Assembly (NCBI GenBank): GCA_001769535.1
Contig: MEOH01000027.1
Location: forward strand, 32,553-96,552
Length of the DNA: 64,000 nt
Direction: 5' to 3'
From: Bacteroidetes bacterium GWF2_38_335
Lineage (GTDB): Bacteria > Bacteroidota > Bacteroidia > Bacteroidales > GWF2-38-335
Shown here: piece after piece, positions 53,108 to 64,000 of the stretch
Layout: each line of letters starts with the position of its first letter
Position numbering within the stretch: position 1 is the stretch's first letter
Notes under the pieces: generated by a model
What the model saw: only the letters and a program-made list of their open reading frames with translations
Told to the model about the DNA's origin: nothing
The model's database searches: none
Position numbers and translations under genes: made by a program

Positions 53108-56100
53108 CTACCTCATCAAAGTAACCTTCCCGGCTACTTCATGCTTGTTCTCATCCTTGTCAAAATAAATAACCAGCCAGGTGTACACATCGGTGGGTGC
53201 TTTTTTATTGCCTTTTACCCTGCCGTCCCAGCCTGTTAACTGAGGTGCAAGGGGGTCATAGTCGGTGGTTTCGTAAATCAGCTCGCCCCAACGGTCGTAT
53301 ATTCCCATGAAAAATCCATCGGTAACCATTCCGGTGCCCACCACATAAAACAGTTCATTTATTCCGTCGTTATCCGGTGTAAACGCTGTTGGTGCCCAGA
53401 AAGTAAAATAGTCATTGATAATCACATAATCTGTGACTGTATCCCTGCATCCGAATTCAGTTACTGTAACCAGGGTTACTTCGTAAGTGCCCGGCTCAAA
53501 ATATTCATGCATGGGGTTTACCAGTTCCGAAGAATCATGATCACCAAAGAACCAATAATTATAATAATTGTAAACAGAGGTGTTTTGGAAATATATTTTT
53601 GGCTCCAGAATAGTAGTAACCCAAGGATCCGGAATAAAAGAAGCTTCGGGCTCAGGATATACGGTTATCATATCTTCATAGGTCATATCTGAACTACACC
53701 CAAACTCATTGGTAACAGTTAGGGTCACATCATACACCCCTGAATTCTGATATGTATGTTGCGGATTTGGCAATTCAGATGAATTATAACTGTCAGGATC
53801 ACCAAAATCCCAGTCGAACTGAATTCCAGGATCTGCCTCAGTTATTTCAGTGAAATGAACAATGAGTGGCGGACAACCATTGACAATATCTGATACAAAT
53901 CCTACCGGTGGAGCCGGAATAATTATAAAATTTGCTCCATCGAAAACCATGGGTGTATTACATCCATCTTCCATGGTAACGCTTATTTCAGCTGATTCCT
54001 CAGGGTAGTAACTATAAGGAAATGTTATGGCTGTTGTGCCATCGAAGATAAACTCATATGGTCCGCCATTTCCTCCTGAATAAACTGCGTTTACAGTAAG
54101 CATTTCGCCCCTGCAGATTGTATCATCAGCAAGAATAATTTCCAGATGCAGGGAGTCATGCAGATTAATATCCACGCTCTCGGGTGCAGCAGTGCAGCCA
54201 TTATTGTCGGTTACTGTTACGGTATAGGTTGCTGCTGCATCCGGACTAACTTCAATATATGCCGAGGTAGTGCCAATGTTCCACTGGTAAAAATAAGGAT
54301 AGGTTCCTCCTGTTGTTGCAGCATTGACAACAACGGTATCGTCAATGCAAATGGTTATTTCATCTGGCAGAACCACAATAAGCTGTCCGGGTTCATTTAG
54401 ATAAAAACTCTCTGATTGTACGCAATTATTATTATCCGTAACTGTCAGGGTGTACATTCCTGCAAGCAATCCGCCAATATCCTGATTTGTACTTCCATTT
54501 GACCAGTGGTAAGTGTAACCCGGTGTTCCTCCTGTTACCGACGCGTCAATAGCGCCTGTTCCAACTCCAAAGCAAACCAGATCGGTAATGGATGCGGTAA
54601 TAACAATTTGGGTTGTTAAATCAAAAATTTCAATGCTTCCAATAATATTACAGTCATTGGCATCTGATACAGTAACTGTATAAACACCCGAATGCAATCC
54701 GCTCAGATCAGATGTAGTCTGTCCCGTATTCCATAAATAAGAATAAGGCGGTGTTCCTCCGGATGTAAGCTGAAGGATACTTCCGTTGCTGTATCCAAAA
54801 CAAAGAATATCAGTCCCTGTGAGTGTTGTCACAAGTGCAGCGTCGGGTGCATTAATATTAACTGTTTCGTTGATAACACATGAATTATCGTCGGTTACTG
54901 TAACGGTAAAAGTTCCTGCTGATAATCCGGTGATATCTTCGGTTACAGCTCCGGTGCTCCAGTCATACGAATACGGAGTGGTTCCTCCCGAAACGGTAAG
55001 GTCAATATTTCCGTCGGTGCCGCCAAAACAGTTTACATCAGAATAATCAAAATCGAGATTCAGCGCGTTTGGTTCGTTTATATCAACTGTATATTCATCC
55101 TGGCATCCATCGCTTCCGGTTACGGTTACGGTATAAGTACCTGCCTCAATCCCTGAAATATCCTGCAAAACGCTACCATTACTCCATGCGTAGGTAAAAG
55201 GCGCGGCGCCACCGGTAACCGTCAGATCTATTGAACCAGTTGCAAAGCCATTGCATTCGGCATCAACACTGGTAGCAGACAAAGTAAATCCCGGAATATT
55301 ATCGACAGTTACAACCTGAGTTATTATGCAGCCATTCTGGTCGGTAACCTCAACAGTATAAGGGCCTTGACAAAGATTAACCGCAGTGGCAGTATTTTGA
55401 ACCGGAGAGGTGGTCCATTCGTAAGTGTAGCCCGGACTGCCGCCCGAAACGCTGATGGATGCTTCACCAATACACTGATCGCAGAAATCGTCTTCTGAAG
55501 ATGTTGTGAAAATAATCTCATCGGGAATATCAATGGTATAGGAACCGTTGGATGGTTCGCATGATTCCATTATTGTTTCAAGAGTGATGTTGTATGAAGA
55601 TCCCGGCGTCGGGAATGTAACCTGCATTGGTCCGGGCCCGGAAATATCACCGGCAATTACAGTGCCACCACCTAAATTCCAGTTATACACCACATCGCCG
55701 GCAGCAGTACCGGTATAGGTAATCAGTGCATAACCATCGGAGCATGCGGGCGGAACAATGTTAACTGTAACCGGAGGAGTTTCACAGTAGCAATCCATAT
55801 CAAAAGGAATTGACTGGGTTGCAGCAAGGTTTCCGCAATTGTCGGCAACCGATCCCGAAGCAGAGGCATTTAATGTAAGATTATAGGTTCCGCTGAAAGT
55901 AATGGCCGGACTAAATGTAACAGTAAAAGTATTGCCAAAATCAGCTCCGGCATCACATTCAGGCGAAGACATTCCGGTAATTGTAAATGGCCCGCCCGGA
56001 CCGGTAACCTGAAAATCAGCAATTTCGACCGTTTCACAAATAACGTATTCAGAAAAATTAATGGTAATCTGGTTGCCTTCACAATCAGGTGGGTCAATAT

Positions 56101-57094
56101 CTGTCATAAAAGGATTTACATCATCAAAAATAACTGCAGTAGAAGCCCCAAAGTTGATATCATAACCATAATTTGAACCAGACCAGTTTGAAACATACAG
56201 CACATAGGTATTACCAGCCGTGACCGGAATATCAGAGTTCCACTGATTCCAGGCTCCTGTTCCGGGCCCATTGCAATTACCCGATGACGCAGCGTTGGCT
56301 GAATTGGCACCGGTCGGACCTGCATTAACCGGAGGCAGACTGCCGTCGCCTCCAGCCGTACTGGCACTTACAAGATATGCCCAGGGATTAACAAGCAAGT
56401 CGGCACATGAACCTGTTGTCAGATTGAAAACCGCCCAATCGTAATCATCATCATCATTGTGGGGATCAAGAGTGAAACGGAAAACCCCATTGGTCTGGGC
56501 CGAAAAAATATACCATAAACCATTATTTTCCTGGGGAATACAGCTGGCTGCATCAACATTTATTTCATCAAGGAAATTCCCATCACCTGAATATGCATAG
56601 GGATCAGGCTCAACATAGGTGCTTTGGCAAATAGGAATTGCTCCCAAACAATCCTGAACTGTGGCAGCAGGAGGATCAATATCACAATCAACCGTGGCAG
56701 TCCAGCCGGCAGCGCCCACAGAGCCATCAGAAATAAACTGAATGGTTATGCATGAGGTGGTTGAAACTGCATTAAAACTTGAGGTTGTCCCGGTAAAAGG
56801 ACTACCTGCAACCTGCGGGGCAGATGTGTTTGTGCCTGAATAAATATACAAATAATCGAAATTTGTTTCAAGATCAAGCATTGAAAAAACCAGCCCTATA
56901 TTTTCGGAACTACCCGAACAAAAAGTTACTGTAAAAGTCTCGGAACTATTATAATCCCCTCCGCTCCCACCGCTGTCATAAAATGTTCCCGAGCAGGTGG
57001 TAACAGTCTGACCATTATAGGAATTAATCTGATACACCTGAGCAAAAGTGCCAAGTATAGAGAATAAAAAAGCTATGGTCAGAAACCGTTTCAT
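53108..57094 (-). CDS. Giant T9SS cargo adhesin-like protein: CUB-like N-domain, SprB-type repeats, PKD domains, type B (gliding-motility CHU_C) sorting domain
   Basis: 1328 aa with a signal peptide. About 6 units of C.G..(D/N)GSI.L.V.GG..PY.Y.WS.G....DI.GL.AG.Y.VTVTD.N.C. Two PKD-like domains (FDWDFGD..., WFFGDHD...). C-terminus FTPDNDGINE...GWDGR...YTWLV...AGKVTLMR. Confidence 0.9.
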   Translation of the reverse strand: MKRFLTIAFLFSILGTFAQVYQINSYNGQTVTTCSGTFYDSGGSGGDYNSSETFTVTFCSGSSENIGLVFSMLDLETNFDYLYIYSGTNTSAPQVAGSPFTGTTSSFNAVSTTSCITIQFISDGSVGAAGWTATVDCDIDPPAATVQDCLGAIPICQSTYVEPDPYAYSGDGNFLDEINVDAASCIPQENNGLWYIFSAQTNGVFRFTLDPHNDDDDYDWAVFNLTTGSCADLLVNPWAYLVSASTAGGDGSLPPVNAGPTGANSANAASSGNCNGPGTGAWNQWNSDIPVTAGNTYVLYVSNWSGSNYGYDINFGASTAVIFDDVNPFMTDIDPPDCEGNQITINFSEYVICETVEIADFQVTGPGGPFTITGMSSPECDAGADFGNTFTVTFSPAITFSGTYNLTLNASASGSVADNCGNLAATQSIPFDMDCYCETPPVTVNIVPPACSDGYALITYTGTAAGDVVYNWNLGGGTVIAGDISGPGPMQVTFPTPGSSYNITLETIMESCEPSNGSYTIDIPDEIIFTTSSEDDFCDQCIGEASISVSGGSPGYTYEWTTSPVQNTATAVNLCQGPYTVEVTDQNGCIITQVVTVDNIPGFTLSATSVDAECNGFATGSIDLTVTGGAAPFTYAWSNGSVLQDISGIEAGTYTVTVTGSDGCQDEYTVDINEPNALNLDFDYSDVNCFGGTDGNIDLTVSGGTTPYSYDWSTGAVTEDITGLSAGTFTVTVTDDNSCVINETVNINAPDAALVTTLTGTDILCFGYSNGSILQLTSGGTPPYSYLWNTGQTTSDLSGLHSGVYTVTVSDANDCNIIGSIEIFDLTTQIVITASITDLVCFGVGTGAIDASVTGGTPGYTYHWSNGSTNQDIGGLLAGMYTLTVTDNNNCVQSESFYLNEPGQLIVVLPDEITICIDDTVVVNAATTGGTYPYFYQWNIGTTSAYIEVSPDAAATYTVTVTDNNGCTAAPESVDINLHDSLHLEIILADDTICRGEMLTVNAVYSGGNGGPYEFIFDGTTAITFPYSYYPEESAEISVTMEDGCNTPMVFDGANFIIIPAPPVGFVSDIVNGCPPLIVHFTEITEADPGIQFDWDFGDPDSYNSSELPNPQHTYQNSGVYDVTLTVTNEFGCSSDMTYEDMITVYPEPEASFIPDPWVTTILEPKIYFQNTSVYNYYNYWFFGDHDSSELVNPMHEYFEPGTYEVTLVTVTEFGCRDTVTDYVIINDYFTFWAPTAFTPDNDGINELFYVVGTGMVTDGFFMGIYDRWGELIYETTDYDPLAPQLTGWDGRVKGNKKAPTDVYTWLVIYFDKDENKHEVAGKVTLMR

Positions 57095-57149: not shown

Positions 57150-57290
57150 AAAAATAATTAGCTGATTTGCAAATGTGATGATGTGATAATGTGCAAATTC
57201 CCAAATAATAAATTTACAAGTAAATTTATTATTTGCCAATCTGCAAATCTGCTAATCAACCAATCTGCTAATCAATCAATCTGCTAAGGA
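57150..57290. repeat. Palindrome plus stutter repeats in the divergent promoter region
   Basis: 15-bp perfect inverted repeat CAAATAATAAATTTA-CAAG-TAAATTTATTATTTG at 57202-57235. GTGATGATGTGATAATGTG stutter. AATCTGC(A/T)A occurs 4 times at 57238, 57246, 57262 and 57278. Confidence 0.75.
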
Positions 57291-57380
57291 ATTTCCCTTA
57301 TTAAAAAATCTGTTATTTCATCTATTTTTTTTAACCATTCATTATCGTATTTTTACATTAAATCAAAAAAATGTTTCTAT

Positions 57381-58862
57381 ATGAAAAAATTCCTACTAAT
57401 CCTTTTTGCTGCAAGCACATTTTCGTTTGCTGCAAATTCACAGGTTACCCTGACCACTGCGGCTGACTTTACAGCTACAGATGTTAATGGCAACACAGTG
57501 AATCTTTTTTCCCTGCTTGATGCGGGCAAACATGTAGTACTCGAGTTTTGGGCCACATGGTGAGGCACCTGTCCCGGTGTCGCAACGATCACCAACGAAG
57601 CTTATACCTATTTTGGATGCAACAATGGAGATGTTGTATTTATAGGTGTCAATGTTGAACCCTCAGACGACGATGCTGCATGCATTGCATGGGATGAGAC
57701 CAACGGAGTGGAATATATTACCATCAGCGGTGTTGCTGGCGGTGATGCAATCGGAACCACTTACGGTGTTTCAGCACTCCCGACTCTTTGTCTTATTAAG
57801 CCTGATCATTCAGTTGTTCTTCAGGACATCTGGCCAATCTCTGCTGTCAGTGACATTATTACTCCCCTCGAAGGCCAGGGCTTATCAGAAACTGCTTGTT
57901 CTTCAGTATTAACAGCAAACTTTTCAGCCACTCCCACTACAATCATGGTAGGCGGTTCTGTTAATTTCAACGACGGTTCTTCGGGCACTCCAACCTCATG
58001 GTCATGGACATTTCCCGGAGGAACTCCCGGTACCTCAACCGCAGAAAACCCCACCGGAATTGTATATAATACTGCTGGAACCTATGATGTAACTCTTGAA
58101 GTTTCTGACGGCACATCCACACATTCAACTACCAAAACTGCCTATATTTTTGTATCTGAAGATGCGGTTTATTGTGATGCAGGATCAACTGGAGTTTACG
58201 AATTTATTGATGCTGTTTCATTTGGAACCATTGTAAGCACAGCCACTGGAATTGGCGCAGGAGGTTATCAGGATCATACCGACATGACAACCAACATACT
58301 TCAGGGAAATACCTATCCTATTACAATTACACTAGGAAGCGGATATGCTTCGGATCAGGGAAGGGTATGGATTGACTGGAATCAGGATGGTGACCACCTG
58401 GATGCAGATGAAATGGTTTTTGAATCTACAGTTGGCGTCGGACCATATTCAGGAAATATTACTGTTCCTGCAACGGCTACCCTTGGCGAAACAGTTATGA
58501 GAATTAGGGTATGGGACACCAGCTCAGCCGGCGCAAATAATACTCCTTGCGGAGATGCAGACTGGGGCGAAGTTGAAGATTACAATGTTGTGGTTGAATC
58601 ATCAGGCGTTTCTGTTAATGAAATGAATAGTGTTTCTTATTTAATATATCCCAATCCTGCAGAAAACGAAGTTTTTGTTAATGTTGGCAACAGCAATGTT
58701 AATAAAATTGAATTGACCGATATTACAGGAAAAGTACTTATGGTTACCGAAAAAATCAATGACCTCAATAAATTTGATCTTTCGGGAAAAGTAGCAGGAA
58801 TGTACTTCTTCCGTATTTATACTGACAGTTCAGTTAAAACTCACAAAATCATAGTGAAATAA
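57381..58862 (+). CDS. T9SS-secreted thioredoxin-fold (TlpA/redoxin-like) protein with in-frame TGA at the CxxC position: candidate selenoprotein (UxxC), paralogue A
   Basis: ORFs 57381..57563 and 57708..58862 share a frame and are separated only by TGA 57561-57563. Read-through gives VVLEFWATW-U-GTCPG. Also has a signal peptide, a PKD domain (WSWTFPGGTPGTS...YDVTLEVSDG), a GEVED domain (ADWGEVEDY) and a type A CTD (YPNPAENEVFV...GMYFFRIY...HKIIVK). Confidence 0.8.
57576..57593 (+). promoter_or_regulatory. Candidate SECIS hairpin for paralogue A
   Basis: GGTG-TC-GCAAC-GA-T-CACC. The stem starts 12 nt after the TGA, has a bulged T, and the apical loop GCAAC starts 18 nt after the TGA. Confidence 0.6.
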
Positions 58863-58879
58863 TTTGTTTCAATTAATTT

Positions 58880-58911
58880 AAAAAATCCGGACTTGCTCCG
58901 GATTTTTTTTT
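58880..58911 (+). terminator. Intrinsic terminator after paralogue A
   Basis: AAAAAATCCGGA-CTTGC-TCCGGATTTTTTTTT. Confidence 0.8.
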
Positions 58912-58930
58912 GCCGCAATTTCATTTGAAA

Positions 58931-58938
58931 TAATTTTG
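58931..58938 (+). promoter_or_regulatory. Candidate -7 promoter box (TAnnTTTG) for paralogue B
   Basis: TAATTTTG 61 nt upstream of ATG 58999. Confidence 0.3.
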
Positions 58939-58998
58939 ATCAATGTTGATTTTCTTGAAAACGTATGCTACTTTTACACCAAAGTAATCGTTTACCAA

Positions 58999-60477
58999 AT
59001 GAAAAAAATCCTGTTTATTTTTTTTTCTTTATTAACCCTGTCCTTTTCAGTAAAATCGCAGGTCACACTCACCACTGCCGCTGATTTTAATGTCACTGAT
59101 ATCAATGGAAACCCTGTCCATCTTTTTGATTATTTGGATAATGGGAAATATGTAGTCCTTGATTTTTTCGGGACTTACTGAACCTCCTGTGCAGCCATTG
59201 CAACAATGGCAAATCAGGCATACCAGTATTTTGGTTGTAATTATCACGACGTCATTTTTATTGGTGTAAATCAGGATGCTGATGACGCTGCCTGCGAAGC
59301 CTGGGATATTGAAAACGGAGTTGAATATATTACCATCAGCGGAACATCAGGTGGTGCAGATATATTTGTTGACTATGGAATATCTGCTATTCCGACCATG
59401 TGCCTGATCGCGTCCGATCATACTGTTGTTATGCAAAACATCACGCCCATTGAATCTGTTTCGGATATCATTACACCACTTGAGGCGCAAGGCATTTCAG
59501 CAAACACCTGCGATATAATTTTAATTGCTGATTTTATTGCATCCGCCAACTTCATTATGCCCGGTGAAGCAATTGATTTTACTGATTTGTCACTGAACTC
59601 ACCATCCTCATGGTCATGGTCTTTCCCGGGTGGAACACCCGAAACATCATCTGAACAAAATCCCACCGGAATACTTTACAGTAACCCGGGAACCTTTGAT
59701 GTTACCCTTGAAGTTTCGGATGGCACAAACACAAATTCATTTACTAAATTCGGATACATAGTTGTTTCAGAAGTGCCTGTTTACTGTGATGCCGGAACTG
59801 TAAGCACAATTTATGAATACATTGATGCCGTTTCTTTTAACACCATCAATAATTCAGAAACCGGGAGCGGAACAGGAGGATATCAGGATTACACAACCAT
59901 TTCAACCACAATTAATCAGGGTCATTCATATCCAATAACCATTGGTCTTGGCAACGGATACTCACAGGATAAGGCTAAAGTGTGGATTGACTGGAATCAG
60001 GATGGAGATTTGCTCGACTCAGATGAAATGGTATTTGAGTCGGAAATTGGAGACGGACCATTTACCGGAGATGTTTTCGTCCCGGCAACTTCTGTTCCGG
60101 GCAACACCAGAATGAGAATAAGGATTTGGGATACTTCATCGCCCGAGGCAAATGATACGCCTTGCGGGGATTCTGACTGGGGCGAAGTTGAAGACTATAC
60201 GGTTATTATTGATTCAACCGGAGTTTCAGCAGATGAGTTAATTAATAACAATATTATCATTTTTCCCAACCCTGTGGAAAATAAAATATTTGTCAGTATT
60301 CAGGACCAGAAGATTTACAGAATTGAACTTACGGATCTGACAGGAAAAATAATTTTTCAATCAGAAATAATTGAAAACATGAATTGTTTTGACCTTTCAG
60401 AAAATAATTCGGGTATTTATTTTTTCCGTATTTATTCTGATTATGGAATCAGCACCCATAAAATAATTGTTAAGTAA
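58999..60477 (+). CDS. T9SS-secreted thioredoxin-fold protein with in-frame TGA at the CxxC position: candidate selenoprotein (UxxC), paralogue B
   Basis: ATG at 58999 (MKKILFIFFSLL). ORFs ..59181 and 59206..60477 share a frame and are separated only by TGA 59179-59181. Read-through gives VVLDFFGTY-U-TSCAA. Same PKD + GEVED (SDWGEVEDY) + type A CTD architecture as paralogue A. Confidence 0.8.
59194..59210 (+). promoter_or_regulatory. Candidate SECIS hairpin for paralogue B
   Basis: GCCATT-GCAAC-AATGGC, a 6-bp perfect stem starting 12 nt after the TGA, with apical loop GCAAC starting 18 nt after the TGA. Confidence 0.6.
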
Positions 60478-60718
60478 TAACAAAAACAATTAAAAAATTC
60501 TGATTTAATTTATTTGATGTTTCTTGATGTTTCAAGTCTCCCGACTTGAAACATCCCAGTTCAATCTCATTCAGAAATCAGCCCATAGAATTTTCTACAG
60601 GTAAGTAATAAAACCTACAAAAAAACAATAAAATCACGCAGTTAAAATCTGTGATTGCATGGATTTTTATTTAATTCTCAATACATTATCTTTATTCCTG
60701 TAACCAAATTACATTCAT

Positions 60719-63700
60719 ATGAAAAAAACAATTCTGATTTTCTTAGGCCTTTTGTTTACATACGGCCTTTTTTCACAGACCATCGTGAGCACCACCGTGC
60801 AAAAACGAAAAGTCGTTCTCGAAGAATATACCGGAATTTATTGCACCTGGTGTCCCGAAGGACATGAGATTGCATATAATCTGGCCACTGCAAATCCGGG
60901 CAATTTTTTTGCTATCAATTATCATTATGGCGGATATGCGGCTCCCAGCGGATCTGATCCCGATTACCGAACACCCGATGGCGATATCATCGGTGGATTC
61001 TTTGGTCCGACCGGTTTCCCCATGGGTCAAATAAGCAGACATGATTTTGGTGCCGGTATTGTTACAGGCCGCGGAGACTGGACTGCCAATACCAATACGG
61101 TGAAAAACGAAGACTCTTACGTTAACGTGGGAGTAGAAGCGACATACAACAGCACTACCAAACTTCTGACCGTACACGTAGAAGCATATTATACAGGAAA
61201 CTCTCCTGCCCCAACCAACTACCTTTCTGTTGCCCTGCTGCAGAGTAATATTATTGGACCGCAAACCGGCGGATCAGGAAATCCTTATGGTTACATTAGT
61301 GCTACACAATACAGGCATGCACACATGTTCCGGGATATGATCAATCCGGTATGGGGCGATGCCATTTCCACAACTACAACAGGAACATTTGTAAACAAAT
61401 ATTATTATTACCTTGTTCCAACTTCATTTAACGGTGTGGCAGTTGTTCCTGGTGACCTTGAGATAGTTGCTATGGTACATGAAACAGAAGCTGAACTTGA
61501 ATCAGCCAACGGATGCGTTCCAACCATCACTTCGACAGTACCAACCCTTGATGCTGTACTTACCAGTGTTACTACTCCCGAAACTGTTTGCGGCGACCTC
61601 AGTCCGGTTGCTACCATCCTCAACAACGGAAGCACTACGCTTACTTCAGTAGGATTTTCATATAATGTAAACGGCGGAACTCCCCAGACATACACATGGA
61701 CAGGGTCATTAACCACAGGTCAGAGTGCCAACGTGACTCTTCCTGTAATTTCTTTTACACCTATAACAACAAACACCTGCAACGTTTCAATAACTACAGT
61801 CAACGGAGGGGCTGACGGCGTAACCACAAACAATACGGGCAACGCCTCATTTGCTGCTGCAATAACTGGTACCACCACAGTTTATCTTGAATTGATGACC
61901 GATAATTATGGTACGGAAACCACTTGGAACCTGAAAAACAGTGCAGGAACCACTCTCTATAGCGGAGGACCCTACACAAATGCACAGGTTACTTATAACC
62001 AGACATGGACACTGGCAGCAGACTGTTACACCTTTACCATCAATGACGCATATGGTGACGGCATGTGCTGCAGCTATGGAAACGGTTATTTTACCATTGA
62101 CGACTCAAACAGCACACTCCTTGGCTCAGGCGGGCAGTTTGGCTCATCAGACCAGGTGGTTTTCAGAGTGGCATCTGCCGCTCCTCCTGTTACGAATTTT
62201 ACTGCCAGCGCAACATCTGTTTGTGCAGGAAGTACCATTACATTTACTGATAACAGCACCAATTCCCCGACTTCATGGTCATGGAATTTTAACGGAGGCG
62301 CCACAAATTCAACTGTTCAGAATCCCACAGTCACTTTCAATACTCCGGGAACCTATACAATTGCCTTAACTGCTACCAACGGAGCCGGCTCAAATACAAA
62401 TACAAAAACCAATTATATAACCGTATACGCCAATCCTACTGCTTCTTCAAGTGCAGCAGCTGTTGCATGTTTTGGCGGAACAACCGGAACAGCAACCGTA
62501 ACTCCTTCTGGAGGTACTTCACCCTATACATACCTTTGGAGCAACGGCGGAACATCGGCTTCAATTACCGGACTCGCTGCCGCAACATACAATGTAACTG
62601 TTACCGATTCACATAACTGCAAAGCTTATGCAAGCTCTGTTGTTACTCAGCCAGCCACTGCAGTCAATGGATCCATTACTTCAAGTACAAACGTTTCCTG
62701 CTATGGGTTGACCAACGGTTCAGCAACTGCTGCCGGATCCGGAGGAACATCTCCTTACACTTATACATGGTCCAGTGGTGCATTAGTTGCCACTGCAACC
62801 GGACTAGCTTCCGGCACTTATACCGTTACCATCAGGGATGCAAATTTATGTACCATCACCAGAACTGTTACCATTACCCAGCCAACAGCACTCAACGCTT
62901 CGACCTCAACCACCGCTGCAAACTGCTTTGGCCAATCAAACGGAACTGCCACAGTGACAGCTTCGGGAGGTTCACCAACCTATACTTATCTGTGGACAGG
63001 CGGGGCAACTACTGCAGCTGCAACCGGACTGGCAGCTGGTACTTACACCGTGACTGTTACCGACTCACACAACTGTACCACAACAACCACTGCTACCGTT
63101 AGTCAGCCCACAGCTGTTTCCGGCTCACACACATCAACCAACGTAATCTGCAATGGCGGATCAACAGGAACAGCCTCTGTTTCAGCAACAGGCGGAACAC
63201 CTTCCTATACCTACAGCTGGAACACCGGTTCAACCAGTGCTTCAATCAGCGGACTTATTGCCGGTACCTATACAGCCACCATCACCGATACACACGGATG
63301 TACCGATACCGAATCGGTTACCATTACCCAGCCATCAGCCCTGGTAGCCTCAACAACTGTTGTGAATGTTTCCTGCTTCGGATCATGCAACGGAAGCGTT
63401 ACAGGTGGTGCAACAGGCGGTGGAGGAACATTGATTACCTATTCCTGGTCAAACGGAAGTGTTAACCCCGTAATAAGCGGACTTTGTGCCGGTACCTACA
63501 CCCTGACTGTTACCAATGACCTTGGCTGTCAGGATACCGAAACTGCAACGGTTACATCGCCAACGGCTATAGTTGTCACTCCTTCGGTGACAAACGCAAC
63601 ATGCGGAACAGCCAACGGATCGGCTACTGTTTCAGTTTCCGGCGGATCATCGCCCTATACCTACAGCTGGAGTACCGGGTCAACAACAACCGGCATCACA

Positions 63701-64000
63701 GGTGTGGTTTCAGGAACATACTATGTAACCGTAACCGACAGCCACAGCTGTCAGCAAATTCAGACAGTCAATATCTCTGATGTGGGCGGTGCAACAGTGA
63801 CCACAAACTTTACCCCGGTAAGCTGCTTCGGTGGAAGCAACGGAACTGCTTCGGTTTCAGCAACCGGTGGAACATCTCCTTACTCATACAACTGGTCAGC
63901 AGGCGGATCGGGAACTTCGGTTGCCGGACTGGCAGCAGGAACATATACCGTTACTGTAACCGACAACAGCGGTTGCGTTTCAACCCAGACTGTCACCGTT
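60719..64000 (+). CDS. Giant T9SS-type cargo protein: Omp28-related thioredoxin-like N-domain (CTWC), YGDGMCC module, PKD domain, SprB-type repeats (3' end runs off the window)
   Basis: Absent from the ORF track because it is open to the window end. I read frame 2 from ATG 60719 to 64000 without a stop. MKKTILIFLGLLFTYGLFSQ, VVLEEYTGIYCTWCPEGH, INDAYGDGMCCSYGNGYF, WSWNFNGGATNS...YTIALTATNG, then at least 8 units of C(F/Y)G..(N/T)G.A.V.A.GG..PY.Y.W..G......GL.AGTYTVTVTD...C. Confidence 0.88.
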   Translation, partial: MKKTILIFLGLLFTYGLFSQTIVSTTVQKRKVVLEEYTGIYCTWCPEGHEIAYNLATANPGNFFAINYHYGGYAAPSGSDPDYRTPDGDIIGGFFGPTGFPMGQISRHDFGAGIVTGRGDWTANTNTVKNEDSYVNVGVEATYNSTTKLLTVHVEAYYTGNSPAPTNYLSVALLQSNIIGPQTGGSGNPYGYISATQYRHAHMFRDMINPVWGDAISTTTTGTFVNKYYYYLVPTSFNGVAVVPGDLEIVAMVHETEAELESANGCVPTITSTVPTLDAVLTSVTTPETVCGDLSPVATILNNGSTTLTSVGFSYNVNGGTPQTYTWTGSLTTGQSANVTLPVISFTPITTNTCNVSITTVNGGADGVTTNNTGNASFAAAITGTTTVYLELMTDNYGTETTWNLKNSAGTTLYSGGPYTNAQVTYNQTWTLAADCYTFTINDAYGDGMCCSYGNGYFTIDDSNSTLLGSGGQFGSSDQVVFRVASAAPPVTNFTASATSVCAGSTITFTDNSTNSPTSWSWNFNGGATNSTVQNPTVTFNTPGTYTIALTATNGAGSNTNTKTNYITVYANPTASSSAAAVACFGGTTGTATVTPSGGTSPYTYLWSNGGTSASITGLAAATYNVTVTDSHNCKAYASSVVTQPATAVNGSITSSTNVSCYGLTNGSATAAGSGGTSPYTYTWSSGALVATATGLASGTYTVTIRDANLCTITRTVTITQPTALNASTSTTAANCFGQSNGTATVTASGGSPTYTYLWTGGATTAAATGLAAGTYTVTVTDSHNCTTTTTATVSQPTAVSGSHTSTNVICNGGSTGTASVSATGGTPSYTYSWNTGSTSASISGLIAGTYTATITDTHGCTDTESVTITQPSALVASTTVVNVSCFGSCNGSVTGGATGGGGTLITYSWSNGSVNPVISGLCAGTYTLTVTNDLGCQDTETATVTSPTAIVVTPSVTNATCGTANGSATVSVSGGSSPYTYSWSTGSTTTGITGVVSGTYYVTVTDSHSCQQIQTVNISDVGGATVTTNFTPVSCFGGSNGTASVSATGGTSPYSYNWSAGGSGTSVAGLAAGTYTVTVTDNSGCVSTQTVTV

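Follow-up and report, generated by a model that had tools for sequence, protein, structure and literature searches.

Two tandem genes of Bacteroidetes bacterium GWF2_38_335, referred to here as A and B, each carry an in-frame UGA codon at the active site of a predicted thioredoxin-fold oxidoreductase, and each UGA is followed by a short RNA hairpin lying within the coding sequence. On comparative grounds, both hairpins are very probably bacterial selenocysteine insertion sequence (SECIS) elements, which would allow the UGA to be decoded as selenocysteine (Sec). The genes were found in a 64,000-nt stretch of contig MEOH01000027.1 (hereafter the window; all positions are counted from its first nucleotide), and the evidence comes from the position of the UGA codons, the continuity of the reading frames across them, a hairpin that is specific to the Sec-encoding homologues and covaries at a constant position, and the linkage of family members elsewhere to Sec-decoding (sel) genes.

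Gene A (57381-58862) and its paralogue, gene B (58999-60477), form a tandem pair on the + strand, with read-through open reading frames (ORFs) of 493 and 492 residues, respectively, the same domain order and N-terminal domains of 62% identity. Each contains a single in-frame TGA, on the + strand at 57561-57563 in A (U61-x-x-C) and at 59179-59181 in B, embedded in the contexts FWATW-U-GTCP and FFGTY-U-TSCA. Among the homologues listed, the residue at this position is in nearly all cases the first Cys of the family's CxxC motif, DFFFTT-C-GP-C. Coding continues for about 430 codons past the TGA, and Pfam domains above their curated cut-offs succeed one another in the order AhpC-TSA/Redoxin (a TlpA-like thioredoxin fold), PKD, GEVED and a type IX secretion system (T9SS) C-terminal sorting domain. 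PF00578 (AhpC-TSA; cut-off 26 bits), in which the UxxC motifs are U-G-T-C and U-T-S-C, matched A with 45.8 and B with 39.2 bits, and PF18962 (Por_Secre_tail; cut-off 27 bits) matched them with 46.1 and 43.2 bits. Thus, an in-frame UGA aligned with the Cys of homologues is flanked on both sides by conserved coding sequence, as in selenoprotein genes. The translations also begin with hydrophobic, signal peptide-like N-termini, MKKFLLILFAASTFSFA in A and MKKILFIFFSLLTLSFS in B, so that the products are presumably exported thiol-disulfide oxidoreductases.

In both genes 12 nt, GGCACCTGTCCC in A and ACCTCCTGTGCA in B, separate the TGA from the stem, and the hairpins were located exactly at the sequences and positions that a preliminary description of this DNA had given, namely 57576-57593 in A and 59194-59210 in B. 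Hairpin A, on the + strand, reads GGUGUC(G)-CAA-(C)GA[U]CACC; its stem of 6-7 bp is interrupted by a bulged U at 57589, and its loop starts 18-19 nt after the UGA. The element of B (59186-59218, + strand) consists of the upper hairpin GCCAUU(G)-CAA-(C)AAUGGC and a lower stem formed by CCUG (59186-59189) and CAGG (59215-59218). In the ViennaRNA fold, the first and last bases of GCAAC pair and the loop is reduced to the triloop CAA; the alternative reading is a GCAAC pentaloop. The two stems had been called unrelated, but their 5′ arms share two of six bases, so this is not wholly the case. A stable fold had likewise been expected at both sites, and this was borne out in full for B and in part for A. 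Hairpin B was the minimum free energy (MFE) structure in every context (40, 62 and 120 nt), with −7.5 kcal/mol alone and −13.3 kcal/mol with the lower stem, of which pair 9-39 covaries in comparison with the homologues on L001 and L045. Hairpin A was not the MFE structure of the free RNA and became so once the 12 nt after the UGA (+1 to +12) were masked as unpaired.

To collect homologues of both kinds, we made use of the fixed codon register between the active site and a YFGCN motif 15 residues on, and scanned public contigs for the pattern TGA-N6-TGY-N21-AAY-N6-TWY-N6-TWY-GGN-TGY-AAY, with TGH allowed in the first position in the genome scan. Within the window this pattern matched only the two sites of A and B, with 0 matches expected by chance. 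The metagenome contig scan yielded 79 stretches and the genome scan at least 120, and after the read-through translations were checked against the domain hidden Markov model, at least 49 distinct TGA (Sec) members and at least 79 distinct TGY (Cys) members were retained. Among the matches listed for species-representative genomes, the Sec forms were mostly from Bacteroidales metagenome-assembled genomes (MAGs), plus one Fibrobacterota MAG, and the Cys forms were from Flavobacteriales, Saprospiraceae, Bacteroidales and others. In protein searches, the full-length query was swamped by PKD/GEVED matches and domain-limited queries were used; a third search, using the part of the domain that follows the UGA, found split gene calls and brought the number of distinct sequences in the clade of A and B to eight (A, B, L001, L045, L163, L203, L206 and L207). 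A further Sec clade (L209 1483-1540, P0246, P0248 and P0250), in which YGSN replaces FGCN (U-PTC-ATVVPDINAEY), was missed by the scan pattern, which indicates that the Sec membership of the family is larger than counted. Conversely, the scan pattern also picked up a recurring unrelated element, translated as YS-TGA-KMCF[RG]LF, on L005, L016, L020, L024, L028, L094 and about 15 more contigs, including Methanobrevibacter; it was rejected as a family member, and in L094 it had no Rfam match.

Next, the stability of the segment from +13 to +42 (30 nt) after the TGA or TGY was compared with that of 300 recodings preserving the peptide and drawn from each gene's own codon usage. The MFE of gene A was −7.1 kcal/mol against a mean of −2.2 in the recodings (z −3.75), none of the 300 being equally stable, and that of gene B was −9.2 against −5.5 (z −2.1, p 0.037; 11/300). 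For the 49 Sec genes, the mean MFE was −5.05 against a null of −1.86, with a mean z of −2.5 and 59% of genes at p≤0.05, whereas the 79 Cys genes had a mean MFE of −1.71, a null of −1.77, a mean z of +0.09 and only 1% at p≤0.05 (Mann-Whitney p ~1e-14 for the difference between Sec and Cys genes). The difference had the same direction in a wider segment of 48 nt. As the sequences are not independent, clades were also defined by single linkage at 35% nucleotide divergence; at this level z was below 0 in 10 and below −1 in 9 of the 12 Sec clades, while the 17 Cys clades had a mean z of +0.14 (p 0.0013).

Covariation was found within the clade of A and B, whose eight sequences align without gaps. 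The 7-bp stem was paired in 85.7% of cells, compared with 16-66% when the 3′ partner was slid by 1-3 columns. Double-sided changes occurred in four of the seven pairs (C-G/U-A, G-C/A-U, U-A/C-G and C-G/G-U), and the covariation score of 0.423 was reached by none of 500 shuffles. Between A and B, two synonymous third codon positions are joined by a compensatory pair (GUC...ACG versus AUU...ACA). The structure is therefore kept by compensatory change and is absent from the Cys-codon homologues, as expected of a functional RNA. Together with the contrast between Sec and Cys genes, these substitutions support two proposals of the preliminary description, that a SECIS-type element lies within the coding sequence and that orthologues carry compensatory stem changes.

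The position of the hairpin relative to the UGA was maintained across the family as well. The apical loop started 17-21 nt after the UGA in 44 of 48 Sec members. Masked folds placed the start of the stem at +13 or +14 in 43/49 members and unmasked 105-nt folds at +12 to +18, the hairpin being part of the MFE structure in 53% of Sec versus 10% of Cys genes; since the mask partly imposes the stem start, we relied on the loop position and the 30-nt test instead. The stems themselves (4-7 bp) are completely different between clades, and the loops vary, including UGUCCC (from Val-Pro codons), CCUUAUUUA, CAA/GCAAC, UAC, CAC and others. At two loci, family members adjoin Sec-decoding genes: a compact cluster on L011 (1764-9548) contains tRNA-Sec, selA (533 bits), selB (315 bits), a family UxxC TlpA-like gene, a MauG/MbnH-like di-haem gene and selD (484 bits), and in L096, a Bacteroidales MAG, tRNA-Sec lies about 0.5 kb upstream of the family gene. 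These findings bear on whether the hairpin could be functional without SelB, by pausing the ribosome, stimulating read-through or stabilizing the mRNA. Such a role would be compatible with short stems, clade-variable loops and the lack of the canonical loop G in half of the hairpins. Nevertheless, constant spacing of a structure from a UGA that takes the place of the catalytic Cys, with selA, selB and selC beside family members, is the arrangement of SelB-dependent decoding, and the bSECIS (bacterial SECIS) model, as summarized in PMC13188914, already permits 4-bp stems and varied loops. We therefore consider a SelB-free function very unlikely.

It is slightly less probable still that amino-acid constraint or chance produced the hairpins, the codons for the peptide behind the active site happening to be self-complementary. 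In favor of this explanation, hairpin A is weak, the GCAAC loop merely encodes Ala-Thr, and the closing G-C pair is forced by these residues. Indeed, GCAAC corresponds to the conserved codons GCN ACN and reads GCCAC in L203 and GCUAC in L206, with other loops in the other clades. Its identity in A and B, which the preliminary description had offered as evidence, thus provides no independent support for an RNA motif, and GCAAC was rejected as a conserved SelB-binding loop motif. The bulged U, proposed as a further SECIS feature, did not hold up either, as it occurs in A only and is missing from B and all six other clade members. Against this explanation, recodings that keep the peptide folded much worse in A, B and the family, and the stem changes are compensatory. 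Moreover, no excess structure was found in the Cys homologues, even where the peptide is the same. For the common peptide C-I-A-S-V-P-T, the Sec genes use GCG UCU GUC CCG ACG, with the stem CGUC/GACG, while the Cys genes use GCA UCU GUU CCA ACU, with no stem. Likewise, of two adjacent paralogues on contig L052 (135 and 1732), the Sec copy forms GAUCG-UGUAUC-CGAUC (−5.1 kcal/mol), whereas the Cys copy, of near-identical peptide, has a broken stem (−1.6 kcal/mol). Cys orthologues retaining the hairpin, which had been named in advance as the finding that would speak against a SECIS element, were therefore not encountered among the 79 Cys genes, the peptide-matched genes or the L052 pair.

In the public record both genes are cut short. 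Only a 384-aa tail of A, starting from GTG at 57708, is called (P0001; 100% identical to 'hypothetical protein A2W91_11875 [Bacteroidetes bacterium GWF2_38_335]'), the tail of B is a 306-aa fragment, and relatives are stored as split calls, with a 60-62-aa ORF ending at the TGA followed by an ORF of about 190 aa. Taken at face value, these calls (P0001, P0002, P0241 and P0242) agree with the TGAs being real stops, in pseudogenes or in genes split into 60-aa and ~400-aa parts, with the hairpin having no recoding role. We find this hardly credible, because, in no fewer than 49 distinct sequences from 12 clades, the only TGA falls without exception on the catalytic Cys and the frames on both sides are intact and conserved, because sel genes are linked at two loci, and because a lone N-terminal half of a thioredoxin fold would be functionless. 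The least credible explanation, that these organisms read TGA as Trp or Gly, is suggested by the W stored at the Sec position of P0121 (L001/L002) and P0004 (L003), but the underlying DNA is TGA in both and the W was introduced by gene callers using a TGA=Trp code on short contigs, TGA ends 6 of the 39 long ORFs in the window, as in the standard genetic code, a scan across the window gave no convincing second in-frame TGA, and replacing the nucleophilic Cys of CxxC by Trp or Gly would inactivate the enzyme. Such caller-made Trp at a Sec site is a general trap in searches for Cys/Sec homologues.

If the hairpins are SECIS elements, as we favor, decoding might proceed as follows. With the UGA in the ribosomal A site, the next ~12 nt would occupy the mRNA channel, so that a competing hairpin in gene A would melt, and the stem-loop, beginning ~12-13 nt downstream of the UGA, would be positioned at the channel entrance. 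There it would be bound by SelB-GTP-Sec-tRNA(Sec), and Sec would be delivered in place of termination. The predicted products would be full-length proteins of ~490 aa with a U-x-x-C redox center in a TlpA/Prx-like thioredoxin fold, followed by the PKD, GEVED and T9SS domains.

We then compared the two elements with the bSECIS consensus (Zhang & Gladyshev, 2005, as given in PMC13188914), which comprises a loop of 3-9 nt with G within its first two positions, a stem of 4-16 bp, 16-37 nt from UGA to loop and an MFE of at most −7.5 kcal/mol. As in the model so summarized, the stem-loops of A and B lie within the ORF, with the stem 12 nt after an in-frame Sec-UGA, and their loops of 3 or 5 nt, stems of 6-7 bp (with a bulge in A) and UGA-to-loop distances of 18 nt (pentaloop) or 19 nt (triloop) are all within its limits. 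Element B also reaches the energy cut-off, both alone and with its lower stem, and the GCAAC pentaloop has G first, followed by C, unlike the usual G and G/U. Several observations nevertheless weigh against a SECIS assignment. The CAA triloop preferred by ViennaRNA lacks the G required by the consensus, and across the family about half of the hairpins do not follow this rule (25/48 do). Hairpin A, with −5.4 kcal/mol alone and −7.1 kcal/mol in a 30-nt context, is borderline and falls short of the cut-off cited there. A more stable competitor, GGCACC-UGUCCC-GGUGUC (57564-57581, + strand; −7.6 kcal/mol), which has the GGUGUC arm in common with hairpin A, prevails in the free RNA. The competitor draws on +1 to +6, nucleotides enclosed by the ribosome while decoding takes place, and the clade relatives have not conserved it but fold the SECIS hairpin directly; the failure of hairpin A in plain MFE folding was therefore not taken as a refutation. 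Further, the member in the L011 cluster, although clearly linked to Sec genes, has no hairpin in +13 to +42, so that its SECIS may be placed differently. Finally, ARAGORN found no tRNA in the window, and among ten window ORFs of SelA/SelB/SelD-like sizes NCBIfam identified no sel genes, only housekeeping ones (thiL, gpsA, lpxC-fabZ, sufB, sufD, pgi, metG and a GldK-like gene); with neither a sel gene nor tRNA-Sec within these 64 kb, the Sec competence of the MAG is deduced from its relatives. As a separate observation, the competitor loop UGUCCC is also the one found most often among SECIS hairpins of the family's other clades; in A it lies only 6 nt after the UGA and is probably a coincidence of Cys-Pro codons.

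Other features surround the two genes. Between A and B, an A6-TCCGGA-CTTGC-TCCGGA-T9 hairpin (58880-58911, no strand assigned), read directly from the sequence, looks like a two-way terminator, which suggests that A and B are probably separate transcripts. It was missed by a consensus scan, presumably because its A and T tracts lengthen the stem, and it accounts for the sole Rfam matches obtained, which were weak small RNA and leader ones over this hairpin. The region upstream of A (57157-57290) contains repeats with an 8-nt period (ATCTGCNA), with AATCTGCTA occurring four times, mostly at 16-nt spacing, as well as an imperfect inverted repeat of 55 nt (57163-57217/57220-57274); these repeats might be a regulator-binding array. 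The pair is flanked by large repeat-rich ORFs, one of 1328 aa at 53108-57094 (− strand) and one of at least 1100 codons at 60701-64000 (+ strand), open past the window end, which may encode further secreted or cell-surface proteins.

The biology proposed here is of an expected kind, in which the redox Cys of a thioredoxin-fold oxidoreductase is replaced by Sec and a short hairpin evolved in the coding sequence. Its practical value lies in annotation, since gene calls that are truncated, as for both genes in the public record of the GWF2_38_335 MAG, or split or W-translated, as in relatives, leave the catalytic half of the enzyme absent from databases. In addition, the 49 Sec and 79 Cys homologues, with one codon register and a dozen independent stems, could serve as a natural experiment on the minimal SECIS determinants of Bacteroidota, and would also document exported selenoproteins bearing a T9SS signal. 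A broader reading would place these genes in a family of type-IX-secreted selenoproteins that is widespread, and has gone essentially without annotation, in anaerobic Bacteroidales and related lineages of the Fibrobacteres-Chlorobi-Bacteroidetes group, acting at the cell surface or extracellularly, with a minimal 4-7-bp SECIS locked 12-18 nt after the UGA and recognized by SelB in a lineage-specific manner, as the lack of the canonical loop G in about half of the hairpins would imply. We regard this as doubtful.

With respect to known RNA elements, A and B have no sequence similarity to the E. coli fdhF SECIS, and a bulged U of the fdhF type is present in A only and is not conserved. The minimal upper stem-loop of fdhF was reportedly placed 11 nt after the UGA by Liu et al. 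in 1998. The comparison with SECIS covariance models advised in the preliminary description had no matching model to draw on, as Rfam gave no SECIS or other relevant family, either for the whole window at the gathering threshold or for 57300-59400 at E≤10. Reviews describe bacterial SECIS elements as having no conserved sequence features, a picture that the loop diversity of this family fits, and about 13% of catalogued selenoprotein genes as lacking a canonical SECIS.

With respect to the proteins, a 2006 survey reported no Sec-decoding trait in Bacteroidetes (PMC1794560), and a full-text literature search turned up no paper that treats selenoproteins as cargo of type IX secretion, the sole co-mention being an unrelated rabbit-nutrition study; the lineage and architecture of selenoproteins such as A and B may thus be less documented. 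The closest counterparts in Cys form are the exported TlpA/ResA-type reductases, which have the same fold, domain matches and DFFxTxCxxC context, with YFGCN 15 residues on; the Cys homologues carry the NCBI name 'TlpA family protein disulfide reductase', and many of them share the signal peptide and T9SS tail. A and B differ from them in having Sec for the first Cys and an RNA hairpin in the coding sequence. Among predicted selenoproteins, reviews list a 'UGC-containing TlpA' family, which has Sec in a TlpA-like fold in common with A and B but carries the motif U-G-C where they have U-x-x-C (UGTC, UTSC), and a Prx-like thiol:disulfide oxidoreductase (PF00578, UxxC/UxxU), represented by the Geobacter-type WP_010940744.1 (PMC13188914, PMC9312934). 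A and B likewise match PF00578 and have a UxxC motif with Sec first, a likeness that concerns the domain and motif description rather than the sequence of the representative, and they are set apart by belonging to a Bacteroidota clade with a signal peptide-like N-terminus, PKD, GEVED and a T9SS sorting domain. Since the reviews already list both families, a UxxC selenoprotein of this fold is of a known kind; A and B would be mis-annotated members of the known UxxC Prx/TlpA-like selenoprotein kind, with ordinary bSECIS-type elements that call for no new mechanism.

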